A DNA stretch of 32,000 bases from Candidatus Iainarchaeum sp. (GCA_028710695.1 JAQTTP010000004.1:1-32000); one strand, 5' to 3'; shown: positions 15,217 through 32,000, counted from the stretch's first letter. The notes: a model not told the origin generated them from the sequence alone. Translations and numbers: made by a program.

Positions 15217-15314
15217 AAATAAAATTAGTCTTTAGATTATAAAAAGATATTGGGGGCAAGTAGGGGAAAGGACAGCTTTAGTTAGATGTGGGTATTAAAA
15301 AAAGAAAAAAGGAA

Positions 15315-15722: not shown

Positions 15723-15799
15723 ACCATAATTATTAGTTTGTTATATCTTATATAATTTAAAAACAAAAGGTATATATAGATTTATGATATGTTTTTAGT

Positions 15800-17234: not shown

Positions 17235-17257
17235 TTTGAGATTAATTAGGTGTATTT

Positions 17258-17689
17258 ATGGATTTGGAAGAGAAAGAACAGAGGTATAGGTTTTTGTATT
17301 CGAAAGTTGACAATGAACTTAACAAGATAAAAGGCCTTAAAGACAAAATGGAAGAAAAGAAAACAGATGTCTATAAACTTGCTGGAAATAAGCAAGTTGA
17401 TTTTTCTCTTCATTTTGGAGATAACTCTGAAGATCTTTACTCTGGAGTAAATAGTTATATTGGCGATCTTGAGAACCTGAAACATTATTTATCTTTAGAA
17501 CTTGAAAAGATTGTTAAGCAGATAGATCTTAAGAACTCTTTAGTAAAGAAATACGGGAAGTCAATAACTGTATCTGGGGATGAAACTCCAGTTGTAACTT
17601 TTAATGATGATGAAGTTTCTGAGATAGAAAGTAAGTATACAGTTAGTAAAAAGTTAATTGACGACTTGAAGAGTAAAATGAAAGAATAG
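17258..17689 (+). CDS. Hypothetical coiled-coil protein (143 aa)
   Basis: Heptad-rich, charged sequence with no TM. Its start lies 24 nt after the preceding stop and it is the third gene of the set. Confidence 0.5.
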   Translation: MDLEEKEQRYRFLYSKVDNELNKIKGLKDKMEEKKTDVYKLAGNKQVDFSLHFGDNSEDLYSGVNSYIGDLENLKHYLSLELEKIVKQIDLKNSLVKKYGKSITVSGDETPVVTFNDDEVSEIESKYTVSKKLIDDLKSKMKE

Positions 17690-17717
17690 ATCCTCTTAAA
17701 GCTAAGTTTTTATTTGC

Positions 17718-18605
17718 TTACTTATATTCTACAAGCTTTTTGTGCATTTCAAGTATATTATCAACAGATTTTTTTAACTCTGTAACAGATTCTACAAAAA
17801 GTGATTTTTCAATATCATTTGGGTTTATATCTGCAATTCCTAAGATCTTGCCTTGTTTTACTTCAAAAGGCAAAGATATTGAAATGTCTTTTGCTCCAAA
17901 TGCCTCTTTTATATAGTGTGAAACATGAACAACTTCTTTTTTGTCAGAAACTAACTTTTCGAAAAACTCTCTAAAACTTATTCCGGCAACTTTGTGTGGG
18001 ATACCATTTTCACGAATGAAATCAAGTAATTCGTCATCTATTTGTTTTTGTATGACTAAGTATTCGGCTTTAGTCTTTAAATTAAGTAATGGTATCGCTT
18101 TTCCGTGGGAACCAATACAAAATACTTTGTGTTTTAATTTTTTTTCAAATCTTTTCGCATCAAGTTCTAATCCAAAACCAAGAATACAATGCTTTCCCAA
18201 CATTATTCGCAGATAATTAGTTATTTCGTCAACTGGGTTTGTTACTAGTATTATTGGAGTTTTTTCAGGGATTTTTTTAAGATCTGCTATTAATTGTGTT
18301 ATTGCCCCAATATTAAATTTCAATTCATCTTGTCTTACTTCATAGGTAGAACGACTATTTTGCATACTTTCTTTTCTTGCACTGTCACTCATTCCAGAAA
18401 GAGTAATAATGACATAATCTACATCGTCTAAATGTTTAATGTTGTTTACTGGCTTTATTTTTTTGTTGTCAAAATCATAAGCCAAAGATTCAGAACTTTT
18501 TGTGGTTCTACTATAAATGAAAATATTCTGGACAGGTTTGAAATCTAATAAGTTTCCCACTATGGTTCGGCCAGTTCGGCCACAACCAATGAGTAAAATA
18601 TTCAT
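17718..18605 (-). CDS. mdh: Lactate/malate dehydrogenase family NAD(P)-dependent oxidoreductase
   Basis: MNILLIGCGRTGRTIV (Rossmann G-x-G-x-x-G), ILVTNPVDEITNYL and IGSHGKAIPLL. I moved the start to the internal ATG at 18605. The upstream 26 codons in the track run into the promoter and terminator region. Confidence 0.8.
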   Translation of the reverse strand: MNILLIGCGRTGRTIVGNLLDFKPVQNIFIYSRTTKSSESLAYDFDNKKIKPVNNIKHLDDVDYVIITLSGMSDSARKESMQNSRSTYEVRQDELKFNIGAITQLIADLKKIPEKTPIILVTNPVDEITNYLRIMLGKHCILGFGLELDAKRFEKKLKHKVFCIGSHGKAIPLLNLKTKAEYLVIQKQIDDELLDFIRENGIPHKVAGISFREFFEKLVSDKKEVVHVSHYIKEAFGAKDISISLPFEVKQGKILGIADINPNDIEKSLFVESVTELKKSVDNILEMHKKLVEYK

Positions 18606-18691
18606 AATTGAATTTATATTACCCCTTAGTTTATTAATATATTCTTTTTTTTTAAAACTGACTAAAGTATAGTTCCGCACCACCTTGTGTC

Positions 18692-18719
18692 AAAAAAGCA
18701 TTTTGCTTTTTGCAAAATG
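18692..18719 (-). terminator. Hairpin plus T6 tract downstream of tRNA-Ile (putative terminator)
   Basis: An 8-bp stem (18699-18706 / 18712-19) with a 5-nt loop. On the minus strand it is followed by CTTTTTTG (complement of 18691-18698). Confidence 0.45.
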
Positions 18720-18804
18720 TTTCAGGACCTGAAGCGGTTTGTTTACAAACCGGCTTCTTGTAGTGCACTTTTGGCGAACTTAGCCTTTTTGTAAAAGGCT
18801 AGAA

Positions 18805-18878
18805 TGGGAATGCCCGGATTTGAACCGGGGACCTTCCGATTATCAGTCGGATGCTCCACCAGGCTAAGCTACACTCCC
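18805..18878 (-). tRNA. tRNA-Ile (anticodon GAU), intron-less, no encoded CCA
   Basis: Hand-folded minus-strand sequence: GGGAGTG TA GCTT AGCCTGGTG GAGC A TCCGA CTGATAA TCGGA AGGTC CCCGG TTCAAAT CCGGG CATTCCC A. The acceptor stem is 7 bp (one G-U), the D stem 4 bp, the anticodon stem 5 bp and the T stem 5 bp, with a canonical T-loop. Confidence 0.93.
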
Positions 18879-18879
18879 T

Positions 18880-18949
18880 CTGCCCTTTTTCTTTTGCGAA
18901 AGAAAAAGTGTAAGTTGCCCAAAAAGAAAGGCGCTTCGCAGTTATAAAC
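18880..18949 (-). repeat. Copy A of the ~70-nt stable-RNA-associated element (TATA-like box plus hairpin leader) immediately 5' of tRNA-Ile
   Basis: Minus-strand reading: gtttataact|gcgaagcgcctttctttttgggcaacttacactttttctttcgcaaaagaaaaagggcag, then a, then tRNA +1. The 60-nt core matches 22163-22222 at 58/60 (counted by hand). It contains a 10-bp hairpin CTTTTTCTTT/AAAGAAAAAG. Confidence 0.85.
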
Positions 18950-19111
18950 AGATAGATATGTTTTAGTGCAATTTGTTTTTAAACATTATCTTTTAAATTT
19001 GTGTTTTTTAAGCTGATGGTAGTTAACTTTAAAAAATATCCTATGTTATATAATCTGGTTTTTTAAACAATATGTCTTAAGAATATATTAATACCTTATG
19101 GTTGTGGTGTA

Positions 19112-20020
19112 ATGGGGAAAAAAATACTTCTTGTTGGTGTTGGCTCTATTGGAACTTATCTTGCTTTAAAATTGTCTGCTGGCGGAAATGATGTTACTGT
19201 TTTGCGAAGTAGTAAGCTTAATGGCATAAAAACAGGAGATTCTATAAAAATAAATGGGGCGCCTTTTGTAGTTCCTAATCTTGTTGATGAATTAAAAGAT
19301 AAAGATCCAACTTTTTATGATTATATATTTTTAACTTGTAAAATGTATGATATTAGAAATTTGCTTAAAGAAATTATACAAAAAGGTCTAAAATTTGGAA
19401 CTTTAATATCTATACAGAACTCTTTGTTTGAGGATATGTGGTATTTTGATTACATTAAAGATAAGCCTTTTGTTATTGTGTCTGTTTACGAAGGATTCTT
19501 TTTGGATGGTAGGGACATAAAAAAATCTGATTACAAAGGTTGGTTCGTTGAAGATGATATGCTTGGAAGAGATATTCATAAACTCCTTTTGGGGTCAGAT
19601 ATTGCTGTTTCGCTAGTTTCTGATATAAGAAAGTTGAGGGCGGAAAAAACAGTAATTAACTGTGCTTTGAATGCAATATCTGCGATAGAAGACAAAACCT
19701 TTGCAGAGATGATTGCTAATAGAAAGATTAAACAAGAAATGAAAACTATATTTGACGAAAGCTATGATATTCTTTCAGAATTAGTAAAAATGAAAGCTAA
19801 AAGAATGTTGTGGCAAGAACTGCTTGACCGTGCAAAAGAAATGAAACATTATTCAAGCACCTGGCAAGATGTTAAACAAAACAGGAAAACAGAGATTGCA
19901 TTTTTGAATGGGTATGTGGTAAGTTTATCAAGAAGATTGGGTAAACCTGCGTCCTATAATCAAATAATAATGGATAAGTTTAGGGCAAAGTATCCTGGTT
20001 TGTATTACGTTCAGTTATAA
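19112..20020 (+). CDS. 2-dehydropantoate 2-reductase family (PanE/ApbA-like) oxidoreductase
   Basis: N-terminal Rossmann KILLVGVGSIGTYLALKL. C-terminal signature SSTWQDVKQNRKTEIAFLNGYVV matches the S-x-x-QD...TE-x-x-x-NG pattern. Confidence 0.75.
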   Translation: MGKKILLVGVGSIGTYLALKLSAGGNDVTVLRSSKLNGIKTGDSIKINGAPFVVPNLVDELKDKDPTFYDYIFLTCKMYDIRNLLKEIIQKGLKFGTLISIQNSLFEDMWYFDYIKDKPFVIVSVYEGFFLDGRDIKKSDYKGWFVEDDMLGRDIHKLLLGSDIAVSLVSDIRKLRAEKTVINCALNAISAIEDKTFAEMIANRKIKQEMKTIFDESYDILSELVKMKAKRMLWQELLDRAKEMKHYSSTWQDVKQNRKTEIAFLNGYVVSLSRRLGKPASYNQIIMDKFRAKYPGLYYVQL

Positions 20021-20567: not shown

Positions 20568-21200
20568 ATGAATAGGGTAATTAAAACACTGATGCTTTCA
20601 GACATCTTTATACTAACTGGGTTTGGGTTAATAGACCCAATAATGGCTATTTTCTTTAAAGAATACTTAATTGGTGGAACAGTAATTGCTGCAGGAATTG
20701 CTTGGGCTATATTTTTAACAACAAAAAGCATAGTGCAAGTACCATTCTCTAAGTATGTTGACAAACATATGAAAAGTATGGGCTGGTTGATATTTGGTAC
20801 CTTTATGATTGCGCTGGTGCCATTTATCTATATTTTCTCAACCCATATTTGGCATATATATGTGGCTCAGTTTATTCATGGAATCGGGTCAGCAATAGCA
20901 TATTCTACTTGGCTTGGTATCTGGAGCAGGAACTTAGATAAGAACCAAGAAAGCTTTGAGTGGAGCCTATATTCTACTGTTTCTGGGATTGGAACTGCAA
21001 TAACGGCATTTTGTGGTGCTTTAATTGCTCAATATGTTGGCTTTACCTATACCTTTATCATGGTTGGGGCGTTATCATTGCTTGGGTGTGTAGTTTTAAT
21101 GTTTGCAGAATATAAATCTGAAGAGATATACAAGCTTAATTTGAGGAACTATCATAAAAAGCTTCAGAAACGGCATTTATTTGGAAAAGGAATATTATAA
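20568..21200 (+). CDS. Half-size (6-TM) MFS-like membrane protein
   Basis: About six predicted TM helices. The loop FSKYVDKHMKSMGWL resembles MFS motif A. There is no room for a second 6-TM half on either side. Confidence 0.55.
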   Translation: MNRVIKTLMLSDIFILTGFGLIDPIMAIFFKEYLIGGTVIAAGIAWAIFLTTKSIVQVPFSKYVDKHMKSMGWLIFGTFMIALVPFIYIFSTHIWHIYVAQFIHGIGSAIAYSTWLGIWSRNLDKNQESFEWSLYSTVSGIGTAITAFCGALIAQYVGFTYTFIMVGALSLLGCVVLMFAEYKSEEIYKLNLRNYHKKLQKRHLFGKGIL

Positions 21201-21253
21201 CTGTGGCATTCATGTCACTCTTTTCTTTTGAAAACAGACCCCTGCGGTCTGCA

Positions 21254-21309
21254 TTCTTTCTTTTTGGAAGACTGTAGCTTTTTCCTTTCTTTTTAAGAAA
21301 GAAAAAGCT
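21254..21309 (+). repeat. Copy C (diverged) of the hairpin element, abutting and overlapping the 3' end of the RNase P RNA on the opposite strand
   Basis: ttctttctttttggaagactgtagctttttcctttctttttaagaaagaaaaagct shares the ordered blocks tttctttttgg / ctttttc(c)tttc / gaaagaaaaag with copies A and B. Hairpin arms are 21276-21289 and 21297-21309. The blocks are low-complexity, so homology is only moderately supported. Confidence 0.4.
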
Positions 21310-21539
21310 TAGTAGTAGGGCGTAGGCCACCTTCTGTTTTTAGCTAGCATTAATCTAAGCGCGTTTGCTTGCATCCGTGAAGCAAAACCATCTTTCAGCC
21401 TGATGCAGAAACCTCAATTTTCTATCATAGTAATTCTGCAGGGTGTATTTCTGTTGGTTGTGTCATCCTTCTCAGGATTTTTCTCACATAATGGATGGGC
21501 GGACCTTCCTCCTTGCGGGAGCTAGCCACCTACTACTAA
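21309..21539 (-). ncRNA. rnpB: RNase P RNA, compact form (~231 nt)
   Basis: The minus strand starts UUAGUAGUAGG UGGCUAGC UCC-CGCAA-GGAG GAAGGUCCGCCC... and ends ...GCUAGCUA AAAACAGAAGGUGGCCUACG CCUACUACUAA. P1 is 11 bp between the termini, P2 is 8 bp (UGGCUAGC/GCUAGCUA) and P3 is a small hairpin. The CR-I-like GAGGAAGGUCCGCC and the ACAGAA-GGUGGCCUA block pair as P4 (AGG[U]CCGCC / GGUGGCCU) with the universally conserved bulged U. An A-U to G-C covariation relative to the E. coli P4 is visible. A GGCUGAAAGAUGG J11/12-like block is present. TTATAATA lies ~28-32 nt upstream of the 5' end. Confidence 0.75.
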
Positions 21540-22033: not shown

Positions 22034-22062
22034 GATTTCAGTGAATATATGATTATATTAAT

Positions 22063-22260
22063 CCCGCCTTAGCATAGTGGCTAATGCGTTCGGCTGTAGA
22101 CGACATAGTGAGTATACTCACAGAAAGAGCGCATAACACAATTTAAGGTTTATTACTCCTACGCGAAGCGCCTTTCTTTTTGGGCAGCTTACACTTTTTC
22201 TTTCGCGAAAGAAAAAGGGCAGTAACCGAAAGATCCTTGGTTCAAGTCCGAGAGGCGGGA
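22063..22260 (+). tRNA. tRNA-Tyr (anticodon GUA) with a 125-nt intron at the canonical 37/38 position (intron 22100-22224)
   Basis: Exon 1: CCCGCCT TA GCAT AGTGGCTA ATGC G TTCGG CTGTAG. Exon 2: A CCGAA AGATC CTTGG TTCAAGT CCGAG AGGCGGG A. The C1-G72 pair (archaeal/eukaryal Tyr identity) and a short variable loop are present. In the BHB-like fold, C32-U35 (CUGU) pairs with intron GCAG (22219-22222), flanked by 3-nt bulges AGA and UAA. The outer helix is weak, so the motif is relaxed hBH. Confidence 0.9.
22148..22222 (+). repeat. Copy B of the element, forming the 3' 60 percent of the tRNA-Tyr intron
   Basis: gtttattact cctac gcgaagcgcctttctttttgggcagcttacactttttctttcgcgaaagaaaaagggcag. The 60-nt core (22163-22222) is 58/60 identical to the reverse complement of 18880-18939. 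The upstream gtttatWact box is also shared, with a 5-nt indel. It contains the perfect 24-nt palindrome ctttttctttcgcgaaagaaaaag. Confidence 0.85.
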
Positions 22261-22261
22261 T
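22250..22261 (+). repeat. attL candidate: GAGAGGCGGGAT (3' end of tRNA-Tyr)
   Basis: This exact 12-mer recurs at 28654-28665 in direct orientation. It is GC-rich in an AT-rich context and lies next to the integrase gene. Confidence 0.5.
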
Positions 22262-22323
22262 AAAGGAACGGGTTTAATCCCGTTCCACAAATATTTATAA
22301 TTTTTTCGGTCCTAGTTCTTACA

Positions 22324-23502
22324 ATGGCTTCAATATATCATGATGACAAAAGAATAGCAAATGCAGTCAAAAACTTAAACTCTGATATTAATATTCCACC
22401 AATTGCTAAAGATGAAATAACAAAATATATTGAATACTGTGCAGCAAGAGGAATAAAAAAAGTAAGATTTCCAAAATTAATTGGCGAGTTATCAAAAATG
22501 GCAACACTCTTAAAAAAATCATTTAAAGAGGCAAACAAAGATGACCTTATTTCTTTAGCTGCAAAGATAGAAAGCTTAGATTTAGCAGATTATACAAAAT
22601 ACGAATATAAAGTTGTACTTAAACGATTTTATAAATACTTAGAAGGGCGAGACATTAAGTATCCTGAAAAAATTGATTGGTTAAAACCAAAAGAGCCTAT
22701 GAGTACGAGACTTCCAGAAGACATTCTTACTGAAGAAGAACTATTAAAAATGATAGAATCTGCAGAACACCCAAGAGATAGGGCAATAATGATGTTGCTC
22801 TCTGAAACTGGGTTTAGAGTGGGAGAATTGGCAACTTTAAAAATAAAAAATATTACCTTTGAGACAGAAATGGGTTATGTAAGGGTCGACGGAAAAACAG
22901 GCCCTCGAAGAATACCTATTGTGCCATCAATACCTTACTTGGCGGCATGGTTGGATCTACATCCGCAAAAAAACAACCCAGAAGCCCCTCTGTGGCCTTG
23001 TTTAGCGAATAAAGATAGAAATAATCCAGCACCAATGGGATATAATGCAATTAGAAAATTATTGATAACTATCGGAAAAAGAGCAAAGATTACAAAAAGA
23101 ATAAATCCACATAGTTTTAGGCATGCAAGAGCAACATTAATGGCAAGAAAGAATATCTCTGAACAACAGATGAAACAATATATGGGCTGGTCTCAAAATT
23201 CAAAGGAAGTATCAACTTATGTCCATATGGCAAGTAAAGACTTAAATGATCCCATAAAAAAGCTCTACGGCCTAAAAATCGAAGAAACAGAAAAATCAAA
23301 GTTCGCACCAAAAGACTGCCCAAGGTGTTCAGCAAAAAATTCCCCCAATAGTAACTTTTGTACTAAATGTGCTTGCCCTTTAGATACACAAACATTATTA
23401 GACTATGAGCAACAAAAGAAAGAGAATGAAGATTTATTAGACAAAATATTAACTGATCCAATAATAAGAAAACAAATTGTTTTTAAGCTATTGAATAAAT
23501 AA
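22324..23502 (+). CDS. int: Tyrosine recombinase/integrase with C-terminal zinc ribbon
   Basis: SAM-like N-domain. Catalytic residues are ETGFRVGELATLK (Arg), HSFRHARATLM (H-x-x-R) and GWSQNSKEVSTYVH (Trp/His and Tyr nucleophile). The C-terminal CPRCSAKNSPNSNFCTKCACPLD is a CxxC-x10-CxxC motif. A TATA-like ATATTTATAA lies ~27 nt before the ATG. Confidence 0.9.
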   Translation: MASIYHDDKRIANAVKNLNSDINIPPIAKDEITKYIEYCAARGIKKVRFPKLIGELSKMATLLKKSFKEANKDDLISLAAKIESLDLADYTKYEYKVVLKRFYKYLEGRDIKYPEKIDWLKPKEPMSTRLPEDILTEEELLKMIESAEHPRDRAIMMLLSETGFRVGELATLKIKNITFETEMGYVRVDGKTGPRRIPIVPSIPYLAAWLDLHPQKNNPEAPLWPCLANKDRNNPAPMGYNAIRKLLITIGKRAKITKRINPHSFRHARATLMARKNISEQQMKQYMGWSQNSKEVSTYVHMASKDLNDPIKKLYGLKIEETEKSKFAPKDCPRCSAKNSPNSNFCTKCACPLDTQTLLDYEQQKKENEDLLDKILTDPIIRKQIVFKLLNK

Positions 23503-24477
23503 TCATAAAAAAATGTTTAATTGCTTATTCATTCCAATAGACCCATCTATACAAATTGCTGTATCCATAAAAATCGCAGAATTAACTGGCAAAAGCATTT
23601 TTTCAGTAAATAATTTTGATAGTTCTGATAGGATAAAATTCCAATTTAAAAATTCATCTTTTTGAGACAATATATAAGTTTTAAATTTTTCAGGAGAATA
23701 ATCGGTGCGATTCCTACGATTTTTCAAATAATCAAACACAGCCTTTTTCTTTACGTTTTGATCAACTGAATTAAGGACTAAATTAGAATTACTGTTTAAT
23801 CCATCATAGCCAGAAATACGTATTGCAAAGATATTTACTATAATTATACGAAAAAAACCGTGCAAATCACGGAAATTATTTTTGTTAACTTCACTAAAGG
23901 ATAATTTACTAAATAAACTATAAATATTTTCTTCAAATTCTTTAGCGTTCTTTTGCGCGTCATCATAACTAATTCCAGAAAGTAGATTTTTTCGTAGGAT
24001 TGAATTCATTAACAAAGATCTTACATATGATTCATTAGTATCTGTAATTTTTCTTGTAAATATATAAAAATAAAATAAATATATTGCAAAAATTCCAGTA
24101 ATGGATAAGTTGTTAATTCCCTGTATTGCTCTCAATTCTTTTGCAGGAAAAGTAGAACTAACAAAAGCATTAAATTTATTCCCGTCCTTAGCAGAGATCT
24201 TTTCTATTAGAAGTTTAGGCAAATGTTTTTTTAAAAATAAACTATATACTTTAATCCAATTGATTTCATATGGATTTTTTGTTTTATAATGTCTGGGTAT
24301 AATTATATCATCTAATGTCGAACCAATATTGACCCCTGCCCTTTTTCCCCAATAGTAGTCAAAGGTACTTTTTGTACCTTCAAAAACATCTTGAAATATG
24401 CCGTTATATGTTTTTGGTTTCTCTGCCAAAGATAAAAATGCTTTCGATATTAGTGTATCTACGTAAACTTTATTCAA
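23503..24477 (-). CDS. Hypothetical protein (324 aa), element cargo
   Basis: Long ORF convergent with int (0-nt gap). One central hydrophobic segment (ITGIFAIYLFYFYIF). No recognisable motif. Confidence 0.6.
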   Translation of the reverse strand: MNKVYVDTLISKAFLSLAEKPKTYNGIFQDVFEGTKSTFDYYWGKRAGVNIGSTLDDIIIPRHYKTKNPYEINWIKVYSLFLKKHLPKLLIEKISAKDGNKFNAFVSSTFPAKELRAIQGINNLSITGIFAIYLFYFYIFTRKITDTNESYVRSLLMNSILRKNLLSGISYDDAQKNAKEFEENIYSLFSKLSFSEVNKNNFRDLHGFFRIIIVNIFAIRISGYDGLNSNSNLVLNSVDQNVKKKAVFDYLKNRRNRTDYSPEKFKTYILSQKDEFLNWNFILSELSKLFTEKMLLPVNSAIFMDTAICIDGSIGMNKQLNIFL

Positions 24478-24554
24478 ATAAACACCTTGAAAACTATGAA
24501 TAAAAACATATTCACTACGTAAATAATATAAATGAATCTAAAAGGGGGATAAAA

Positions 24555-24704
24555 ATGGGTAAAGATCGAAAATTATGTGTTATTTTGACGGAGATGGATG
24601 ATAAACTTTTAGCTGAGCTGTCAAAAACATCTGGACTAACAAAATCAAGCATTGTACGTCTACTTTTAAAACGGGCATTGTCGGAGGGCTGGACCCCATG
24701 CTGA
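24555..24704 (+). CDS. Ribbon-helix-helix (CopG/Arc/MetJ-like) DNA-binding protein, 49 aa (not in ORF track)
   Basis: Own translation: MGKDRKLCVILTEMDDKLLAELSKTSGLTKSSIVRLLLKRALSEGWTPC*. It shows the beta-strand, helix, G-x-[ST], helix pattern of RHH proteins. AGGGGGAT lies 6 nt upstream. The stop overlaps the next ATG (ATGCTGA). Confidence 0.6.
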   Translation: MGKDRKLCVILTEMDDKLLAELSKTSGLTKSSIVRLLLKRALSEGWTPC

Positions 24705-25030
24705 TTTCACAAAGATTAAAAGAATTACAGTTGGAGGCAAATAATATCTCTAATTTACCAATAACTGCACAGTCGCAATACATTTTCTTTGAATTAAATC
24801 TTGATTCCACACAACAAATTAATCAAAACTTTTATTCAGAGATTATAGGGGGTAAACAAAATCTGATTTCCAATATTACTACGAGCCCGTATTATCTGCC
24901 ACAACAGGTAATAACTTGGATATCACAATTTCAAGATATAGCAGGCAAGATTTCTACTGAATTAAATGAAATAAAAATAGCATACGAAAAAACAGTAAGT
25001 TTGAATTCCATATATGGTGATTTAGCATGA
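24698..25030 (+). CDS. Hypothetical protein (110 aa), element operon gene 2
   Basis: Overlaps both neighbours (7 nt and 4 nt ATGA). Gln/Asn/Ile-rich with no motif. Confidence 0.5.
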   Translation: MLISQRLKELQLEANNISNLPITAQSQYIFFELNLDSTQQINQNFYSEIIGGKQNLISNITTSPYYLPQQVITWISQFQDIAGKISTELNEIKIAYEKTVSLNSIYGDLA

Positions 25031-25806
25031 CTGCAAAAGAAAAAGTATTTGAATTCCTTAAAAAAGAAAATAAACAATATACACCTAAAATAATTTCAAA
25101 GCTCCTTCAGATAGACATAAACACAACACGCGGAGCACTAATAGATCTTTACAAAACAGGGGTAGTTTCAAAGAGCCACCATTATTATTATGTGCCAAAT
25201 GAACAAACCAACGGTGTTGATTACTTGGCCCAAAATTGTGGCGTAAAATATCAGACAAAACAATCAATAATACATAAAGAAAAAGAAATACAGTTAAACC
25301 ACATAAAAATAAGAATAATTTACGGGGAAAAAAATAACCAAGTTACTGCAAAAATTTCCTGTGAGCCTCCAATAAGCATAGAGTTACTTATTGCGGCAAT
25401 ATTAAAAGTAAAGGAAGATATTTTTGAAGAAATAAAAGAACTGCCAAAAGATACAGAAATCCAAATAACAACTTTAGAGTTAAACCAAGATTATCCTAAT
25501 TGGAGGTTTGATGGCATTAACTGCATGACCTTAAATGACGTCTGGGGCTTTTTAAAGATATACAATAAGGATAACCCTACCCGAGTACGTAAAGAGCTAA
25601 GGGCGAGGCTAAAAATAACTCTGGCAGATTTACAACAATTATTAACATACGGAATAACCGAAAGCACAAACAGAGTATATTTAGATCATTCAATTGCAGA
25701 TCTAAAACAAACTATTGCTGTAGATGGTCAAGCAACCAGAAACATTATTTATGCTGCATTAGATAAGCATAACAAGCACATTCCAAGCACAAAGGAGGAG
25801 AATTAA
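25027..25806 (+). CDS. Winged-helix N-terminal domain protein (259 aa), element operon gene 3
   Basis: KEKVFEFLKKENKQYTPKIISKLLQIDINTTRGALIDLYKTGVVSK is a typical wHTH. The C-terminal ~190 aa are unassigned. Confidence 0.6.
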   Translation: MTAKEKVFEFLKKENKQYTPKIISKLLQIDINTTRGALIDLYKTGVVSKSHHYYYVPNEQTNGVDYLAQNCGVKYQTKQSIIHKEKEIQLNHIKIRIIYGEKNNQVTAKISCEPPISIELLIAAILKVKEDIFEEIKELPKDTEIQITTLELNQDYPNWRFDGINCMTLNDVWGFLKIYNKDNPTRVRKELRARLKITLADLQQLLTYGITESTNRVYLDHSIADLKQTIAVDGQATRNIIYAALDKHNKHIPSTKEEN

Positions 25807-26268
25807 ATGGTTAATTTTAATCCACAACCACAGTTTGGTACTAATTTAAATGCAGTAGACTGTGGTAGGAAGGGGGGAAAAAGCACCACAATTAAGACGG
25901 TATTTGCGAGAGAATTAAAAAAAATCCAAAGCTTGGATGCTAAAGACCATCTACAAAAAACAGAGGTCATAGATAAAAATGGGAATAAAGTCGACATCTA
26001 CACCGTTTTGTTGGCGGGGGAGGATGGTATTGACTGTACTATTAAGAGTATTTTAGGAATATATCTCACTAAACTCGACAGAATGGTACAAAATACAAAG
26101 GATGATTACGAGCAAGTAAGACTTATTAAAGAGTGTATAAAAGCCGTGTGTAAGGTAAAAGAAGTGCTTTATGGCAAGAAAGTACGAGCCCCAGAAGGAC
26201 CAAACATATTTGAGATTCAAAAAGCAACTAAGCTTTTTGAAGAGCTTGAAAAAGACGATGGCAATTAA
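25807..26268 (+). CDS. Hypothetical protein (153 aa), element operon gene 4
   Basis: The ATG follows the previous TAA with no gap. The N-terminal GRKGGKSTT basic motif is DNA-binding-like (inference). Confidence 0.5.
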   Translation: MVNFNPQPQFGTNLNAVDCGRKGGKSTTIKTVFARELKKIQSLDAKDHLQKTEVIDKNGNKVDIYTVLLAGEDGIDCTIKSILGIYLTKLDRMVQNTKDDYEQVRLIKECIKAVCKVKEVLYGKKVRAPEGPNIFEIQKATKLFEELEKDDGN

Positions 26269-26317
26269 CCGCCATAAACGCTACAAAGCGCCCACAAATG
26301 GGCTTATAAATCAAATC

Positions 26318-27331
26318 CTAAGAGCCCCACTCTTTTAGACAGGCACTTTTTAATTGTTCATTTTCTATTTTATTACAATACGATGCAGAATTTGCTTTGA
26401 ACGAATATGAATAAAGGCACACATCTTTTGTATTTATTTCATCAGCAAATCCTACTGCCATATAGTGCCTATTATTGTGGTTACATACCAAATCAGTGTT
26501 TTTTATTTCAGCAACATAAGATAAACAAGTACCAAATTGGGCCTCGCCCACTATTGGGTCACAATCTTCTGGTTCTTTTGCAACACCATAATATTTTCCG
26601 ATATAACAACTTTGTTGTTTTTCTGAGTCTCCTTGCAAATTAAAATCATACAAAAAACATTCATCTTCAACAATATTTTTTGCTTTTAGATAGTCGGCTT
26701 CTAATATGTTGTCATAATTTGCTATAAAATAAAAATTATCTATCTGACTGACATAATTTCCATCATCTAAGATGTAATCAGTTATTTGCCACCCACTTAA
26801 GCTATCTTTTAGCTTATAAGTAGAATCATATATTTTACTTTTATTTCCCTCATTAATCTGTAATTTTAGATCAACTTTACAAATGTCCTCTGAAGAATAG
26901 ATGGATTTAATGGATACAATTTCATAAGTTACTTTATCATTTAAGCTAAAATAATAATTTAGATAACTAATACAGTTAGACTCATAACCAAAATAGTTAG
27001 CAACACAAAGGTCATATAAGTCATTGTAATTATTTAATAAAACATCAAAATATTTTTGCCTTGCCTCGATATAAGATAAAGCAGGGCCAACAGTTATTTT
27101 TGATTGAAAAATTAAGTTTTTTATTTTTCCAGTTACTGATTCATAAGCAGCATACTTAATAAAATCCCCTACAACCTGTGCTGTAGGATCACAATTAACA
27201 TCTTTTTTTGTTTCAATTATTGGTGCCAAAGTATTCTTATCGTTACTATCGGAAACACACCCTGATAAAATAAACATTAACATACACAAAGCAACAATCC
27301 CAGATATTACAAAAACCCCATAAAACCTCAT
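26318..27331 (-). CDS. Cys-rich secreted lipoprotein (337 aa)
   Basis: Signal peptide plus lipobox (MLMFILSGC|VSDS). More than 15 Cys are spread through the mature part. A 4-nt ATGA overlap links it to the upstream gene. Confidence 0.7.
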   Translation of the reverse strand: MRFYGVFVISGIVALCMLMFILSGCVSDSNDKNTLAPIIETKKDVNCDPTAQVVGDFIKYAAYESVTGKIKNLIFQSKITVGPALSYIEARQKYFDVLLNNYNDLYDLCVANYFGYESNCISYLNYYFSLNDKVTYEIVSIKSIYSSEDICKVDLKLQINEGNKSKIYDSTYKLKDSLSGWQITDYILDDGNYVSQIDNFYFIANYDNILEADYLKAKNIVEDECFLYDFNLQGDSEKQQSCYIGKYYGVAKEPEDCDPIVGEAQFGTCLSYVAEIKNTDLVCNHNNRHYMAVGFADEINTKDVCLYSYSFKANSASYCNKIENEQLKSACLKEWGS

Positions 27332-27588
27332 TTAGATCCCTCTTTATATATCAAAAAAAGCCCTGCCACTACAAGAACTACGGATGCAATTATAACAATC
27401 CAATCAACAACCAAGACAAGGTTACATTGTTCAAGCAAGCCTCCAAGAATAGAACCACAAAACGTATGTGCATAACTTAAACTAAAAACTTTTTCACCCT
27501 GAGGGTATATTGGTACAAAACGCAATAAAAACAGGATAACCCCAATAATAATGAGTAAATACTTTTTTTGTCTAAGATCCGTATCCAT
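27328..27588 (-). CDS. Small two-TM membrane protein (86 aa from the revised start)
   Basis: I moved the start to the ATG at 27588 (MDTDLRQKK...), which is preceded by AAGGTGA 5 nt upstream. The track's longer version would overlap the upstream gene by 32 nt. Confidence 0.55.
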   Translation of the reverse strand: MDTDLRQKKYLLIIIGVILFLLRFVPIYPQGEKVFSLSYAHTFCGSILGGLLEQCNLVLVVDWIVIIASVVLVVAGLFLIYKEGSK

Positions 27589-27598
27589 TATTTCACCT

Positions 27599-27919
27599 TT
27601 ATTTAGAATAATATTTCTGAAACTCGTCATCTGTGCTTATTAAATATAATATGCCCTCAATAAATCCCACTATTGCAGGTATAAAAGTCCAACAAAAAAC
27701 AAGGTATAGAATTCCTAACCCGACTCTATTTAAATAAAATTTATGTACACCGAATCCACCCAAAAATATTGCTAAAAGACCTGCGGTGAGTTTATCTTTT
27801 TTTGCTACTACTTGTTTTTGTCTTACCCCACATTTAGGGCATATTTCTGCCTCCGTCTTTATAATTTCTCCACAAGATGGACAAAAAATTTCGTCTGCCC
27901 CTTTTACTTTCTTAGCCAA
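27599..27919 (-). CDS. Zinc-ribbon plus TM2-domain membrane protein
   Basis: N-terminal CPSCGEIIKTEAEICPKCG, then LTAGLLAIFLGGFGVHKFYLNRVGLGILYLVFCWTFIPAIVGFIEGI, the TM2-domain signature. Confidence 0.75.
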   Translation of the reverse strand: MAKKVKGADEIFCPSCGEIIKTEAEICPKCGVRQKQVVAKKDKLTAGLLAIFLGGFGVHKFYLNRVGLGILYLVFCWTFIPAIVGFIEGILYLISTDDEFQKYYSK

Positions 27920-28017
27920 AACATCACCTTCTAAATAGAGTATAGCAAAGTTTAAAATACTTGTTTGCTAAGCTTGTGCTAATCTTTCATATATACATCG
28001 CTAATGCCTTTTTCTAT

Positions 28018-28272
28018 ATGATTGAGGACTTAAGCTTTGTTTTGAGAGGCAAAATAAGAACACAAATTATTACCTCACTTACCAATCAAAAGAACCCACA
28101 GAGAATAGCTAAAGAGATAAATACACACTTATCTACAACAAGTAGAGCTCTAACTGATTTAGAATCAAAAGGGCTTGTTAAATGCCTAAACCCAAAGGAT
28201 GCATTCATGCGATTTTATGAATTAACTGAGAAAGGAAAAGAAATAAAGGCAGAAATAAAAAAGGTTATATAA
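28018..28272 (+). CDS. Small winged-helix (ArsR/MarR-like) transcription regulator (84 aa)
   Basis: LRGKIRTQIITSLTNQKNPQRIAKEINTHLSTTSRALTDLESKGLVKCL. The start is moved to the first ATG (28018) because the track uses an upstream TTG. Confidence 0.65.
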   Translation: MIEDLSFVLRGKIRTQIITSLTNQKNPQRIAKEINTHLSTTSRALTDLESKGLVKCLNPKDAFMRFYELTEKGKEIKAEIKKVI

Positions 28273-28283
28273 AAAACATTATA

Positions 28284-28625
28284 ATGAATAAAATAATTAA
28301 AGGTATTCACCAAAGCACTATAGAGATAGTTGCCTCTGCTGGAACCGGGTTAATAATATCGGCTATTTATTACGAAATTTTTGAATCATCTGTTTTTTGG
28401 GGTATATTTTTCTTGATTTGTGTTTATATTCTTTGTATTATAAGCTATATTGGGTTCTTCCAAGATATGTCCAAACAAGTCAAATATACAATTGGTTGGG
28501 TTATCGGGGGGGTAATAATTATTAAATACTGCCCAGAAATAGTGTCATGGGATATGTTGCCATATTTTATTATTCCGGTTTCTACTTTAGGGTATAAAAT
28601 ATATAAACATTACAAAAAAACGTGA
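28284..28625 (+). CDS. Hypothetical 3-4 TM membrane protein (113 aa)
   Basis: A hydrophobic ORF 11 nt after the regulator gene and the last gene before the attR candidate. Confidence 0.55.
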   Translation: MNKIIKGIHQSTIEIVASAGTGLIISAIYYEIFESSVFWGIFFLICVYILCIISYIGFFQDMSKQVKYTIGWVIGGVIIIKYCPEIVSWDMLPYFIIPVSTLGYKIYKHYKKT

Positions 28626-28653
28626 TGCGGGCTTATACCCGCCACCTAACGTA

Positions 28654-28665
28654 GAGAGGCGGGAT
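28654..28665 (+). repeat. attR candidate: GAGAGGCGGGAT
   Basis: Exact direct repeat of 22250-22261. It is preceded by CCCGCC (28638-28643), which equals the 5' acceptor strand of tRNA-Tyr and can pair with GGCGGG. It is followed by a T-rich tract. Confidence 0.5.
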
Positions 28666-28698
28666 TCATTTTCTTTTTTAAATTCAACAAGAACATGG

Positions 28699-29256
28699 CT
28701 ATTTCCCCGCAACTATTTTTACAATACTTTTCCTTTGTACAAGATAGTCTCCTGGCTTGGAATAATACCTTTCTGTGTAGGGGGAAGAATGTGCTTCTGC
28801 TTCAGTTATTGGCCTTATTTCTAAGACTCTAAATTTAGTTCTTTCTAAGGCTTGCCTTAAATCAGAAACATTTTTTATGCCTGCAACAATAATTTCTAAT
28901 CTGCCTGCAGGTTTTAGTTTTCTATAAATATACTTTAAAACTTTGAGATTATATTCCACGGTAATAATAGAATTAAACTTTGGCCCATAATGCCCTAAAG
29001 CCAACTCACTTGTAATTAATTCTGCGCTGTTGTCTTTTAAAGTTCTTAGTCCAGAGATAAAATCCCCTGTATGTTGACGCCAATTAGCAGTGTGAGCAAT
29101 TTCTGATTTAGTTGTATCAATGCCCAAAAACCTCTTCTCTGGTGCTTTTAAAGCGTGTTCTCTTGTTTTGGCACCATTATCTGAGCCAAGATTCCCCAAA
29201 TGCACAACATCTGCGTGCGGCTTTCTTATCCAAGCAGACAATTTCCTAAAAACCAT
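28699..29256 (-). CDS. Divergent class I methyltransferase-fold protein (185 aa)
   Basis: VVHLGNLGSDNG occupies the motif I position, RFLGIDT the motif II position and LKPAGRLEIIV the motif near beta-5. The glycine-rich SAM loop is non-canonical. It is not a close relative of paralogues A-C. Confidence 0.55.
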   Translation of the reverse strand: MVFRKLSAWIRKPHADVVHLGNLGSDNGAKTREHALKAPEKRFLGIDTTKSEIAHTANWRQHTGDFISGLRTLKDNSAELITSELALGHYGPKFNSIITVEYNLKVLKYIYRKLKPAGRLEIIVAGIKNVSDLRQALERTKFRVLEIRPITEAEAHSSPYTERYYSKPGDYLVQRKSIVKIVAGK

Positions 29257-29470
29257 ATAAAAATTAAGGGTAGTTCTTTATAAAACATATTCTTTTAGAT
29301 TGCCATGGCCAAAAACAGATTCCTTTTTATTTTTACTTATTTTACTTATATAAGTTAAATAAGGTGATTTTAAAGGCAAATTAAGGTGAATGTATGGTCA
29401 AGTTTGAATTTATGCTCGGCAGGTTCGCAAAAATGTCAAACAGGAACCATAAAATGGATGGGGTGATTTT

Positions 29471-29659
29471 ATGGTTAATATGACTTTGGCTGTTCCTAAA
29501 GAACTGCATGACATTATGAAGAAGCACCCAGAGATAAAGTGGACTGCGGTGGCAAGAAAAGCAATGGAAAATAAGGCAAAAACCTTAGAAGACGATGACA
29601 AAGAGCAAGAACTCCTTAGGGCATACGCCTATAAACGGCTAATAAGAGATAAGGATTAG
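29471..29659 (+). CDS. Small RHH-like/antitoxin-like protein (62 aa)
   Basis: MTLAVPKELHDIMKKHPEIKWTAVARKAMENKA shows a strand-helix-helix pattern. GGGGTGAT lies 4 nt upstream of the ATG. No partner toxin gene is adjacent. Confidence 0.5.
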   Translation: MVNMTLAVPKELHDIMKKHPEIKWTAVARKAMENKAKTLEDDDKEQELLRAYAYKRLIRDKD

Positions 29660-29918
29660 CCCTAAATTTGTCTTCTTTTTTGTGATTGTTTTTGTTGTCA
29701 ATTTATGTGGTTAGTTTATATTCATAATATATATTATATATATGCGCGAGAGAAAGAGGGAAAACTGATGAGTAACTATTATAAATCTTTGCTAAAAGGC
29801 CGGCAAACCTTTATAAAGAGTAGGGATTAAGTATATTACAGAGCGTTATGAGCGTCCTTAATGTGGGATTCTTTGACTAAAGCTCAGACTCTTCATAGAA
29901 AAACGAGGTGAAGTATAG

Positions 29919-32000
29919 ATGAAGAAATTGAATGTAAAGAAATTAGTGGCTATTGGTACAGGTGTAGCTTTATTGGCTGCTGCTGTTGCTGGTGCTGCAG
30001 TAACTAAGAACGATGTTTTAGACACAACAGGCCACGCAGTTCTAGTAAATGGAATTGTAGTTGGTGAAACAGCTCACGTTAGCGATGTTTTAGCTGCAAA
30101 CAAATTGTCAACTGAGGTTGCAAAGTTAGCAGTATACACAACTGGCGGAGAAGTAGTACCTGGGGCAGAAACTTGTGTTGATGCAACAGGAACCGTAGAT
30201 GACGGCCTAACAGTTAAGAAGAAATTCGTTGGAACTGCTTTAGGAGAAACAAAAGGATCAGATAACTTTGCTGCTGCAGATGTTATTGCAAAAGGTGCAA
30301 ATGTTGGAACTGACCTTTTGGCAGATGAAAGTTCAGCAAGCTATAAAGTTGGTGGAACAACATATACATCTTCAATTAGAGAACAAGTAGCTCTTGGTGC
30401 TCAAGCATTATTTGATGACAGATATTATGTTGGAGACATGGGCTTAGCTTATGATGCAGAAGACTTTGTATACACAGTGACTTTTGGAGATTTGAACTTT
30501 GCTAAAGATACTGCAACAGGCGGATATACAAGCCCATCATGGACAGATGGAACTAATGATAAGGTAGTTATTCCTTTTTTAGGATCAACTTATATGGTGT
30601 ATAGTATTAACGATAGTTCAGACCAGATAGTATTAGTAAACGAAAGTTCAGTAAAATCCTATGCTCCTGGTGCAAAGTTAGAAAACTTAGTTGGTAAAGA
30701 TGGTAAAGCATATTATGCCACAATAGATGGTGTAGTATATAGTTCTACAGACCCAACTACAGTAAAGATGACTTTGTATAACGCAGAAACTGGCGTTGCA
30801 GAGACAGAGAGTACAAAAGTAGCTGAAGGAGAAACTTTTGCAGAAGATTTATTAGATACTGGTGTAGATGTTCACCAAGTTGATAACATAGGTACTTCTG
30901 ATGTTCCTGCCTACGATATACAAATATTGTTGGGTGAAGACAAATTAACAATAAAGAACAACGAAGGATTCCCATATGATTCAACAAAAACAAAAACAAA
31001 TACACAGTATGACTGGAAATCAACAATAAGTTTAACTGGTGGTAAATTAACAAATATAGTAATAAAGAACACTGCCAAAAATGATAAAACTTACACAGAA
31101 AAAAGTATGTTAAACGCTGGAGAAACAGCATGGTTATACGGTGACTTTATTGGTGTAAGATTTAGCGGACTAGAATTGCCAGATTATAGTTCATATGTAT
31201 CTACAACTAAAGAAACAACAACAATAGAATTTACTGATGCATTAGAAAACTCAGATAATATGCCTGGTATAAAATACTATGGTACTGATGATGCATTACA
31301 CGAGCTTCCATTCTATTATCAGTTAACTTTGAGTGCTGCAGATGATACTAACCTAGCTGCAACATTTACTATGGATGGCCAAGACAAGATTCTAAAAATA
31401 GTTGCAGAAGCAGATGGTAACTATAGTGTGTACACTGGTACTGGTAGCGATGTTGATGGAGAATATACAATAAAAATAACTGGTGCAACAGACTGGAAAT
31501 ATACTGCAGATGGAGATATTGATATCAATAGTCCATTAGCATTTACAAATAGTGGAGATATAAGCCAATATTATATCTTTGGTTATGACGCTACAAATAG
31601 TGTTGGATGGTTATTCCTGGGGGCAGATGTTCCTTATAACTTGAAGAGTTCAGCAGCATCTTATGGATCATTTGAGTTAGAAGGGTCTGATCAAGCAGTA
31701 GCATCTTCAACAGTAGCTGATGACTTTAACTTCTATTTACCTCACTTAGAAGGAGAAATAGATTCTTTGACATCAATAGCTGCATACACAGATAACCAAA
31801 TTTCAGCTGCTTACTTTAAAGTAGATCAAGATGCAGCAACAGCTAACTCTGGTGAATTTGCGGTGTATATAAACACAGAAACTGGAAAAGCACCATTAGT
31901 TGGTGAAGGTGGATCAACTAATGATATACCAACTGGATCACAAATCAACTATAGTAGTTCAACAACCTTGATAAAGGCCGGTAAAGATACTGGAATAAGC
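29919..32000 (+). CDS. Large secreted surface (S-layer-like) protein, 5' 694 codons; open at the window end
   Basis: Own translation from the ATG at 29919 (GAGGTG lies 9 nt upstream): MKKLNVKKLVAIGTGVALLAAAVAGAAVTKNDVL..., with no stop through 32000. It has a signal peptide. Composition is Thr/Ser/Gly/Asp/Ala-rich, Cys-poor and beta-rich, and the codon usage looks like that of a highly expressed gene. It is absent from the ORF track because it has no stop. Confidence 0.75.
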   Translation, partial: MKKLNVKKLVAIGTGVALLAAAVAGAAVTKNDVLDTTGHAVLVNGIVVGETAHVSDVLAANKLSTEVAKLAVYTTGGEVVPGAETCVDATGTVDDGLTVKKKFVGTALGETKGSDNFAAADVIAKGANVGTDLLADESSASYKVGGTTYTSSIREQVALGAQALFDDRYYVGDMGLAYDAEDFVYTVTFGDLNFAKDTATGGYTSPSWTDGTNDKVVIPFLGSTYMVYSINDSSDQIVLVNESSVKSYAPGAKLENLVGKDGKAYYATIDGVVYSSTDPTTVKMTLYNAETGVAETESTKVAEGETFAEDLLDTGVDVHQVDNIGTSDVPAYDIQILLGEDKLTIKNNEGFPYDSTKTKTNTQYDWKSTISLTGGKLTNIVIKNTAKNDKTYTEKSMLNAGETAWLYGDFIGVRFSGLELPDYSSYVSTTKETTTIEFTDALENSDNMPGIKYYGTDDALHELPFYYQLTLSAADDTNLAATFTMDGQDKILKIVAEADGNYSVYTGTGSDVDGEYTIKITGATDWKYTADGDIDINSPLAFTNSGDISQYYIFGYDATNSVGWLFLGADVPYNLKSSAASYGSFELEGSDQAVASSTVADDFNFYLPHLEGEIDSLTSIAAYTDNQISAAYFKVDQDAATANSGEFAVYINTETGKAPLVGEGGSTNDIPTGSQINYSSSTTLIKAGKDTGIS

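Follow-up and report, generated by a model that had tools for sequence, protein, structure and literature searches.

Comparison with Known Archaeal Elements

Cryptic integrated elements of archaea, as defined for the Thaumarchaeota, are 2.6 kb or longer and are bordered by attachment (att) sites with a median length of 17 bp, the shortest being 8 bp (PMC6563490). The 2.6-kb NitUzo-E2, for instance, encodes an integrase, a protein of the winged helix-turn-helix (wHTH) type and a pair of hypothetical proteins (PMC6563490). This study concerns a stretch of 32,000 nucleotides from Candidatus Iainarchaeum sp. (GCA_028710695.1, JAQTTP010000004.1:1–32000), hereafter the window, in which positions 22262–28665, next to a tRNA-Tyr gene, very probably constitute an intact small cryptic integrated element in the chromosome of a DPANN archaeon. 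Similar to the cryptic integrated elements of Thaumarchaeota, it is small, with a tyrosine integrase, short att sites and flanking repeats at a tRNA gene, as is often the case for them. It likewise encodes wHTH and ribbon-helix-helix (RHH) regulators together with hypothetical proteins and shows no hallmark of viruses, conjugation or casposons, and the thaumarchaeal elements, too, often have no identifiable replication gene. Different from them, its host belongs to the Iainarchaeia, its integrase is a member of a zinc-ribbon family of about 400 amino acid residues, its cargo is unrelated in sequence and a third of its genes encode membrane or secreted proteins.

The original prediction, made from the sequence of the window, had described an integrase-bearing element bounded by a 12-bp repeat in the 3′ end of tRNA-Tyr, and had taken it for a virus or plasmid of a novel type. 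Its limits were exactly those of the empty site that we found in a relative (contig L006, described below). The claim of novelty was not borne out: the element fits the archaeal cryptic integrated elements already described, and its large integrase family is known from pleomorphic viruses and from elements with replication proteins of the primase type. Judged from the predicted proteins, it is a multigene, integrase-encoding element without capsid, packaging, conjugation or casposase hallmarks, and would thus be a cryptic integrated element sensu Krupovic 2019. As in tRNA-targeting islands, an integrase gene stands beside an intact tRNA gene, a displaced tRNA 3′ end marks the far boundary and a relative carries the empty site.

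Features are also shared with AvPV1, GaPV1, and ThalV2, hyperthermophilic pleomorphic viruses of Archaeoglobi that integrate at tRNA genes and carry the integrase gene (int) beside one att site (Baquero et al., 2024; PMC10919331). Their integrases have 35–38% identity to that of the element. The viral genomes are small circles (PMC10919331), and a circular form is predicted here. Different from the element, these viruses are 13–18 kb long and encode VP3- and VP4-like proteins and, in the Geoglobus viruses, a rolling-circle replication initiator (Rep), none of which was detectable here; the att site of AvPV1 is 27 bp (PMC10919331). In the temperate betapleolipovirus SNJ2, whose initiator Rep-Arvir long went unrecognized because its wHTH alone was visible, circularization of the tRNA-integrated form joins the terminal operon to int, so that the operon becomes functional again (PMC13107129). 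Similarly, the terminal operon of the element, wHTH-ORF113 (ORF, open reading frame, numbered by length in codons), would read into int after excision. Different from Rep-Arvir, none of the 12 proteins of the element matched DUF7845 or another family of replication initiators in Pfam, and in the protein ORF259 the wHTH is N-terminal and the second domain far shorter.

Similar to the systems of archaeal lambda-type (type II) integrases and to bacterial tRNA-targeting islands of the Islander type, int is not disrupted, crossover takes place in the tRNA 3′ end, and a regenerated tRNA stands at attL while the displaced fragment remains at the far end (PMC8371274; PMC4383910). Different from these systems, the identity of the cores is restricted to 12 bp at the acceptor end, and the integrase possesses an additional C4 zinc ribbon. 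For DPANN archaea in particular, a recent survey of viruses and mobile elements is cited in PMC13573593 (Wu et al., 2024).

Insertion into the tRNA-Tyr Gene

The intron-containing tRNA-Tyr(GUA) gene occupies positions 22063–22260 on the + strand. The 12-mer GAGAGGCGGGAT, which comprises the terminal 11 nt of the tRNA and the nucleotide after them, was found in the window only at 22250–22261 (attL core) and at 28654–28665 (attR core, the displaced tRNA 3′ end), both on the + strand. This is the single recurrence in direct orientation that the original prediction had reported. Shuffled sequences gave an expectation of 0.02 matches to the 12-mer with one mismatch allowed. When the 8.5 kb downstream were simulated 1000 times with a Markov-1 model, the frequency of an exact match of at least 12 nt across the tRNA 3′ terminus was 0.002. 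A longer degenerate copy of the 3′ half of tRNA-Tyr was looked for and not found. The original prediction had cautioned that a 12-bp att is short. Short att sites are normal for cryptic integrated elements.

To find an uninterrupted site, one genome per GTDB species was scanned with the 20-nt tRNA 3′ end as the query, and one archaeal contig was returned (L006; 2,447 bp, "uncultured archaeon"). The genes that L006 has in common with the window are 70–85% identical at the nucleotide level, with 83% for a gene of the major facilitator superfamily (MFS) and 85% for an RHH gene. Positions 1–43 of L006 are 100% identical to window positions 22219–22261, which comprise the end of the intron, the 3′ exon and one further base. 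The tRNA 3′ exon of L006 is directly followed by TTCATTCTTTTTTT, which matches window positions 28666–28678, and over the 12-mer plus these 13 nt (L006 32–56) the two sequences agree at 23 of 25 positions. This is the junction between the tRNA and the sequence from 28666 onward that the original prediction had suggested looking for in related genomes. The host flank that starts there is a T-run, TCATTTTCTTTTTTA (28666–28680, +), and it stands directly 3′ of tRNA-Tyr in the empty site of the relative. Farther downstream, L006 79–132 corresponds to window 29316–29369 (92.6%) and L006 154–342 to the RHH gene at window 29470–29658 (85%). Given that the site in L006 is uninterrupted, the interval between the two repeats (22262–28665, 6,404 bp) is an insertion; the comparison thus indicates that this DNA is inserted into the tRNA-Tyr locus.

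L006 was also without positions 28679–29315 (637 nt with a single 185-aa gene) and had 22 nt there instead. A larger element ending near 29315 was considered and rejected. Because no copy of the tRNA end is present near 29315 and the 13 nt after the repeat at 28654 match the post-tRNA sequence of L006, this gap was taken as a separate insertion or deletion, so that either L006 has lost the stretch or the window has gained a second small insertion.

The attL core is adjoined by a hairpin, GGAACGGG-TTTAA-TCCCGTTCC (22265–22286, +). Its stem is GGAACGGG/CCCGTTCC here and GCTCCGGG/CCCGGAGC in the closest relative (L108, about 790–815), so that both sides of the stem have changed. This covariation with the nearest relative suggests a functional structure of RNA or DNA, and the hairpin probably either binds the integrase or, in the integrated state, terminates the regenerated tRNA. 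The right arm also contains a hairpin read from the sequence, GCGGG-CTTATA-CCCGC (28627–28642, +). Moreover, the attR copy lies inside a potential hairpin formed by CCCGCC (28638–28643) and GGCGGG (28658–28663), and the remark of the original prediction that the right copy is part of a hairpin agrees with this pairing over 28638–28663. The two att arms have no 7-mer in common, and neither iterons nor internal repeats that might mark an origin were found in the element.

By tri- and tetranucleotide usage, the element was the most deviant 6.4-kb stretch of the window (0.129, compared with a mean of 0.082 and a standard deviation of 0.021), which is, to a modest degree, the difference from the flanks that the original prediction had proposed to look for. 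Its GC content was 31.7%, compared with 33.4%.

The Integrase and Its Family

The tyrosine integrase of 392 amino acid residues is encoded at 22324–23502 (+; PF00589, E 3e-23). Its ORF starts 63 nt after the tRNA end at 22260, as originally described, and the gene is missing at this locus in L006. An alignment of 26 members showed R165, K191, H263, R266, W289, and Y299 to be invariant, together with the cysteines C332, C335, C346, and C349, and the integrase displays the complete R…K…HxxR…H/W…Y signature of the tyrosine recombinase superfamily. Its HxxR motif is Xer-like and is not the YxxR variant of pNOB8. The score of the integrase against the XerA equivalog (NCBIfam NF040815) was 104.5 bits, below the cut-off of 220; it is therefore Xer-like in sequence and not a host resolvase. 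The core lies 63 nt upstream of an uninterrupted int ORF, as for type II (lambda-like, non-suicidal) integrases. Different from type I (SSV-type, suicidal) integrases, int is intact and no int fragment was found at the other end of the element.

The zinc ribbon (CxxC…CxxC, residues 332–349, window 23317–23370) follows the catalytic tyrosine at the C-terminus and is invariant across the archaeal integrase family. This C-terminal region is annotated as "ribosomal protein L40E" by JGI, and the word "zinc" is not present in a 2021 review of archaeal tyrosine recombinases.

A total of 316 relatives of the integrase were found at E ≤1e-10. The best 120 of the 316 were mostly 360–430 amino acid residues long and 35–51% identical to the integrase, and came from metagenome-assembled genomes of Micrarchaeota, Diapherotrites, Aenigmarchaeota, Woesearchaeota, Nanoarchaeia, Bathyarchaeia, and Caldarchaeales as well as from many metagenomes. 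Linkage to tRNA genes was tested on 80 fetched metagenomic loci, 55 of which had at least 260 nt upstream of the integrase gene. A tRNA gene was found within 350 nt upstream and on the same strand in 19–20 of these 55 loci, compared with none downstream and one in a control region. In addition, all of the four further relatives that were looked up follow a tRNA gene (Thr, Tyr, Cys, and Glu, respectively). The gene of the closest relative (P0002, 51% identity) starts 64 nt after a tRNA-Tyr(gta) gene with an intron at position 38, and the sequence after this tRNA can be aligned with the left arm of the element, including the hairpin. Terminal repeats containing the tRNA terminus were identified in three relatives, with lengths of 12 bp in an element of 3.9 kb (L025), 24 bp in one of 5.2 kb (L052), and 16 bp in one of 5.7 kb (L053). 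Thus, short att sites at the acceptor end and small elements are the norm in this family. L040 has a repeat of 11 bp as well, but what lies inside it is an operon for an ABC transporter, and the repeat was treated as a chance match.

The best matches in the reference virus collection were the integrases of GaPV1 (Geoglobus acetivorans pleomorphic virus 1; 35.5%) and ThalV2 (38%), pleomorphic viruses of Archaeoglobi, and relatives were also found on 13 IMG/VR contigs. The cargo that accompanies this integrase family elsewhere includes, among others, methyltransferases, AIPR or MazE. One member at tRNA-Cys (L109) is accompanied by a Prim-Pol/PriCT_1/DUF5906 replication protein at 17114–19375, and one at tRNA-Glu in a Diapherotrites metagenome-assembled genome (L111) by a HerA-type DUF87/TraG-like ATPase at 14160–15839. 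Given this diversity of cargo behind the same integrase family, the integrase is a shared module, exchanged among replicons of different types, and does not mark one type of element.

The tRNA genes targeted by relatives often possess long introns, of 36–165 nt by ARAGORN (165 nt in tRNA-Cys and 114 nt in tRNA-Thr). The loci concerned are L025, L028, L037, L051, L053, L073, L108, L109, and L111, and a few of their introns are at non-canonical positions. Their att repeats are short and do not extend beyond the acceptor end, and an intron in the anticodon loop would therefore be no barrier to integrases of this family.

Gene Content of the Element

Twelve tightly packed ORFs were identified between the repeats. 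They form four transcription units: int (+), which converges on ORF324 (−); ORF49-ORF110-ORF259-ORF153 (+); ORF106-ORF100-ORF337 (−); and wHTH-ORF113 (+). The original prediction, which described ATGA-type overlaps, was wrong in its counts of 11 ORFs and three modules, having overlooked ORF49, an RHH gene. Besides ORF259 and several orphans, the cargo comprises four proteins that are membrane-bound or secreted and two regulators that bind DNA.

ORF324 (23503–24477, −) is an orphan with a predicted helical fold. When 1.84 billion representative sequences were searched in full with HMMER, only the protein itself and one repetitive protein, rejected as spurious, were returned. ORF49 (24555–24704, +) is the first gene of the + operon and encodes an RHH-like regulator; the gene was called in a Logan contig, and the RHH pattern was read from its sequence. 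It is followed by the orphan ORF110 (24698–25030, +), by ORF259 (25027–25806, +), and by a further orphan, ORF153 (25807–26268, +). On the opposite strand, the N-terminus of ORF337 (26318–27331, −) is a hydrophobic segment that ends in LSGC, and the protein contains 14 cysteines; it is probably a secreted lipoprotein, and no homologs of it were found. ORF100 (27328–27630, −; 86 aa if the start is at 27588) is a small protein with 2–3 transmembrane segments. ORF106 (27599–27919, −) combines a zinc ribbon with a TM2-domain membrane protein (PF05154, E 5e-18; phrog_10680, E 1e-31), a type that is common in phages. The last unit consists of a winged-helix regulator (28018–28272, +; 84 aa by the gene caller, with the frame open from 27961; HTH_45/MarR-type matches) and ORF113 (28284–28625, +), a membrane protein with at least one transmembrane segment and the last gene before attR.

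No informative match to ORF324, ORF110, or ORF153 was found in Pfam, NCBIfam, and PHROGs, and PDB sequence searches with ORF337, ORF324, and ORF153 gave no match. Searches of the cargo by tblastn against 100 related or viral loci returned matches to ORF259 only. The original statement that no capsid, replicase or packaging gene can be recognized agrees with our scans against Pfam, NCBIfam, and PHROGs and with tblastn against phage and plasmid collections; together with PADLOC, these searches identified no capsid, terminase, Rep, primase, helicase, conjugation or defense protein. PADLOC gave generic wHTH matches only, and the element does not resemble a defense island in this regard.

As a single query, ORF259 found only itself. 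A homolog with 24.5% identity is, however, encoded beside an integrase of the same family (L020/L087), and a profile made from these two sequences expanded the family to 17 members. The N-terminal portion of this family is a winged helix of the AbiEi_4/IclR-like type, with matches to wHTH domains only, and is followed by a conserved C-terminal domain of about 190 amino acid residues, for which no match was found in Pfam or PDB. Invariant in the C-terminal domain are D155, R160, T168, Y179, R188, E190, and G209; another three residues (E151, N153, and K181) are conserved in at least 90% of the members. Because these conserved residues are polar, the C-terminal domain suggests an enzyme rather than a simple repressor. 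The homolog in L087 stands beside the integrase at tRNA-Thr, with an RHH gene in front of it, as in the element. Other members are found among restriction-modification and GmrSD genes (L091) and with ParB, DUF5131, and radical-SAM genes (L092). These neighborhoods therefore link the ORF259 family to mobile elements.

ORF259 may tentatively be regarded as a candidate replication or maintenance protein. Comparison of the family with the Rep of GaPV1 and ThalV2 by hhalign was negative (probability 0.6%). Neither rolling-circle (HUH/YxxK) nor Rep-Arvir (DUF7845) proteins were recognized at the sequence level, with no Pfam match at E ≤0.1 for any cargo protein, and the 25 families that were listed as matches of the ORF259 family included neither Rep nor DUF7845.

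Proposed Mechanism and Alternative Explanations

The integrase would have recombined the 12-bp core of a circular form (attP) with the identical end of the tRNA gene (attB). At attL, the tRNA 3′ end would be regenerated from element DNA, and the displaced copy would be left at attR, such that the T-run after attR would be the original terminator of the tRNA gene. The predicted attP site is …GCGGGCTTATACCCGCCACCTAACGTA-GAGAGGCGGGAT-AAAGGAACGGGTTTAATCCCGTTCC…, and the predicted junction strings are CCCGCCACCTAACGTAGAGAGGCGGGATAAAGGAACGGGTTTAATCCCG for attP and GGTTCAAGTCCGAGAGGCGGGATTCATTTTCTTTTTTAAATTC for attB. Excision is predicted to yield a circle of 6.4 kb, with the wHTH-ORF113 operon of the right end reading toward int. 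The circle might then be replicated or maintained by the RHH-ORF110-ORF259-ORF153 operon, with ORF259 as the best candidate for an initiator, and the proteins of ORF106-ORF100-ORF337 and ORF113 might act at the cell surface in transfer, envelope formation or exclusion.

Several observations weigh against an intact mobile element. L006 is about 15% diverged and is also without the adjacent 185-aa gene; the comparison is therefore between species and not between strains. The integrase was looked up as an exact protein, as were the RHH and PCC proteins and the 185-aa protein of the flank, and the sole other contig with these proteins, from Logan, is identical to the window and carries the element in integrated form; neither an empty site of the same strain nor an excised circle was found. 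The exact 23-mers of the attB and attP junctions were not found in contigs of metagenomes, IMG/VR, and GTDB genomes, and the circular junction for which the original prediction had proposed to search was accordingly missing from the metagenome, viral and genome collections; none of the fetched loci was a circular contig. Ten of the 12 proteins are without an informative homolog, and no function in replication, transfer or the virion could be assigned to the cargo. Structure prediction, also proposed originally as a route to capsid, Rep or primase folds, proved unusable, as single-sequence AlphaFold2 models had low confidence (predicted local distance difference test scores of 42 for ORF259 and 38 for ORF324). 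Foldseek matches of these two models in PDB and BFVD had template-modeling scores of about 0.2 and were disregarded. Finally, the compositional deviation of the element is modest.

That no element exists at all, and that a chance repeat or terminator motif merely stands near a host Xer-type recombinase and fast-evolving host genes, is highly improbable. The repeat is short, its right copy overlaps a hairpin followed by a T-run and the best NCBIfam match of the integrase is XerA. However, this match scores less than half of the family cut-off, the repeat is improbable by chance, with 0.02 expected copies and a simulated frequency of 0.002, and the integrase family is systematically tied to tRNA genes. 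The lack in L006 of exactly the interval between the repeats already contradicts such an explanation. An islet that was brought in by the integrase, is non-autonomous or decaying and, having no replication or transfer module of its own, is mainly inherited vertically, with excision and reintegration by the integrase at most, deserves more consideration, and we regard it as rather unlikely. It would account for the absence of a recognizable replication gene, given that a relative with the same integrase family has a Prim-Pol/helicase gene, and it is consistent with the observation of the integrated form only, with the small difference in composition and with a sole empty site that belongs to another species. 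Several features of the genes and termini weigh against it. None of the 12 ORFs is disrupted, and they stand close together and have plausible promoters. The integrase retains every catalytic residue, the core copies are identical at 12 of 12 positions, and the attL arm is conserved in the closest element together with its hairpin, in which the changes compensate one another.

The relationship of the integrase to those of GaPV1 (35.5%) and ThalV2 (38%), its nearest counterparts in reference viruses and encoded by viruses that integrate at tRNA genes (PMC10919331), raises the question of a provirus of a minimal enveloped pleomorphic virus, with ORF100 as the VP3 matrix protein, ORF337 as the VP4 spike and ORF259 as the initiator. 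Membrane or secreted proteins make up four of the 12, and the gene for a small transmembrane protein directly precedes that for a large secreted protein, an order like that of gp03 to gp04 in these viruses. The smallest pleolipoviruses are about 7 kb. We nevertheless consider a provirus unlikely, since no sequence similarity between the cargo and the proteins of GaPV1 or ThalV2 was detected at E ≤5, including to VP3 and VP4 of the Pleolipoviridae, and no match to VP4, VP3, NTPase or Rep was found in Pfam, PHROGs, and NCBIfam. There was also no match in 50,697 phage and virus records or in IMG/VR; ORF337 is without a C-terminal anchor, and the same integrase family heads elements whose cargo is plainly non-viral. 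A broader proposal, that the element is an integrated self-replicating DPANN replicon of 6.4 kb, whether minimal enveloped virus or plasmid, with the ORF259 family as its initiator and thus as an undescribed family of replication proteins, is speculative, and we would give it little more than an outside chance. It draws on the new, catalytic-looking domain of ORF259, in which E, N, D, R, Y, K, R, and E are invariant. As a corollary, the 12-bp att site at the acceptor end would open tRNA genes with very long introns in the anticodon region (36–165 nt in the targets observed) to this integrase family and so sidestep the protective role proposed for these introns. Taken together, a plasmid-like cryptic element that uses the ORF259 operon ranks before a non-autonomous islet, and the latter before a minimal pleomorphic virus.

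Implications

To our knowledge, the mobile elements of DPANN archaea are poorly characterized, and there are no genetic tools for these organisms. The element identified in this study is real, cleanly delimited and useful, and it is not surprising: the kind of element, its mechanism of insertion and its short att sites are already documented in other archaea, and the advance is incremental in this respect. An integration vector could realistically be developed from an intact element of 6.4 kb whose attP, attB, and integrase are defined, and a shuttle replicon could possibly be derived from it if it replicates. In addition, this study delineates a large family of tRNA-targeting zinc-ribbon integrases across DPANN, other archaea and their pleomorphic viruses. 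The small family of ORF259-like proteins, which travels with such elements, could represent a new maintenance or replication function.

The tRNA-Tyr Gene and the Flanking Chromosome

The tRNA-Tyr gene consists of a 5′ exon (22063–22099, +), an intron of 125 nt (22100–22224, +), which is a feature of the host and lies outside the element, and a 3′ exon (22225–22260, +), which is identical in L006 and whose last 11 nt are within attL. With default settings, ARAGORN called a tRNA-Ile gene as the sole tRNA of the window, and the Rfam scan returned the same tRNA-Ile and an archaeal RNase P RNA; the 125-nt intron kept both from reporting the tRNA-Tyr gene. In its intron mode, ARAGORN found a tRNA at 22062–22261 with a 125-nt intron and called it Asn(gtt), because the intron was put at the non-canonical position 36/37. 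Removal of 22100–22224, at the canonical position 37/38, yields tRNA-Tyr(gta). This splice position fits a 4-bp central helix, CUGU/GCAG, with 3-nt bulges AG|A and UA|A, as read by eye. A73 and the C1-G72 pair make up the identity set of archaeal tRNA-Tyr. In automatic annotation this gene will probably be overlooked or misnamed.

The last 60 nt of this intron also form one half of an inverted repeat that is 97% complementary (18880–18939 and 22163–22222). One copy stands directly 5′ of the tRNA-Ile gene on the minus strand, and the other stops 2 nt before the 3′ exon of tRNA-Tyr. Within the repeated module are a T-run and a hairpin, CTTTTTCTTTCGCGAAAGAAAAAG. A third, degenerate copy is present at 21256–21307, directly 3′ of the RNase P RNA gene, and the repeat was found in L006 too (2421–2447). 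Similarities between introns and leaders have been reported for split tRNAs, and the sequence shared by the tRNA-Ile leader and the tRNA-Tyr intron recalls those.

An integrase identical to that of the element is present at NCBI on an 89-kb contig of "Candidatus ainarchaeum sp." The assignment of the host to DPANN is based on the NCBI name of the contig, Candidatus (I)ainarchaeum, which is a DPANN lineage, in line with the DPANN-like host that the original prediction had named. The flanks encode ProRS, PheRS, HerA, a PcrB protein of the GGGP-synthase type, PanE, an MFS transporter, and an S-layer-like protein, and are ordinary archaeal chromosome. The archaeal RNase P RNA gene (21311–21537, −; Rfam RF00373, 108 bits) is two genes upstream of the integration site. 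On the other side, the 185-aa ORF adjoining attR (28699–29256, −) has no family match, and motifs similar to those of class-I methyltransferases were seen in it by eye. Relative to L006, the block from the RNase P RNA gene through the PCC, tRNA-Tyr, element and RHH genes is inverted (breakpoints at about 21200–21310 and 29660–29918). The RHH gene of L006 is followed by the MFS and PanE genes, both of which are upstream of the RNase P RNA gene in the window, and the degenerate 60-nt repeat copy lies at one of the inversion breakpoints. From 29919 to 32000 (+) and beyond the end of the window extends the gene of a large protein, 838 aa long in the Logan contig, which has a signal peptide and no Pfam match and is probably an S-layer or other major surface protein of the host.

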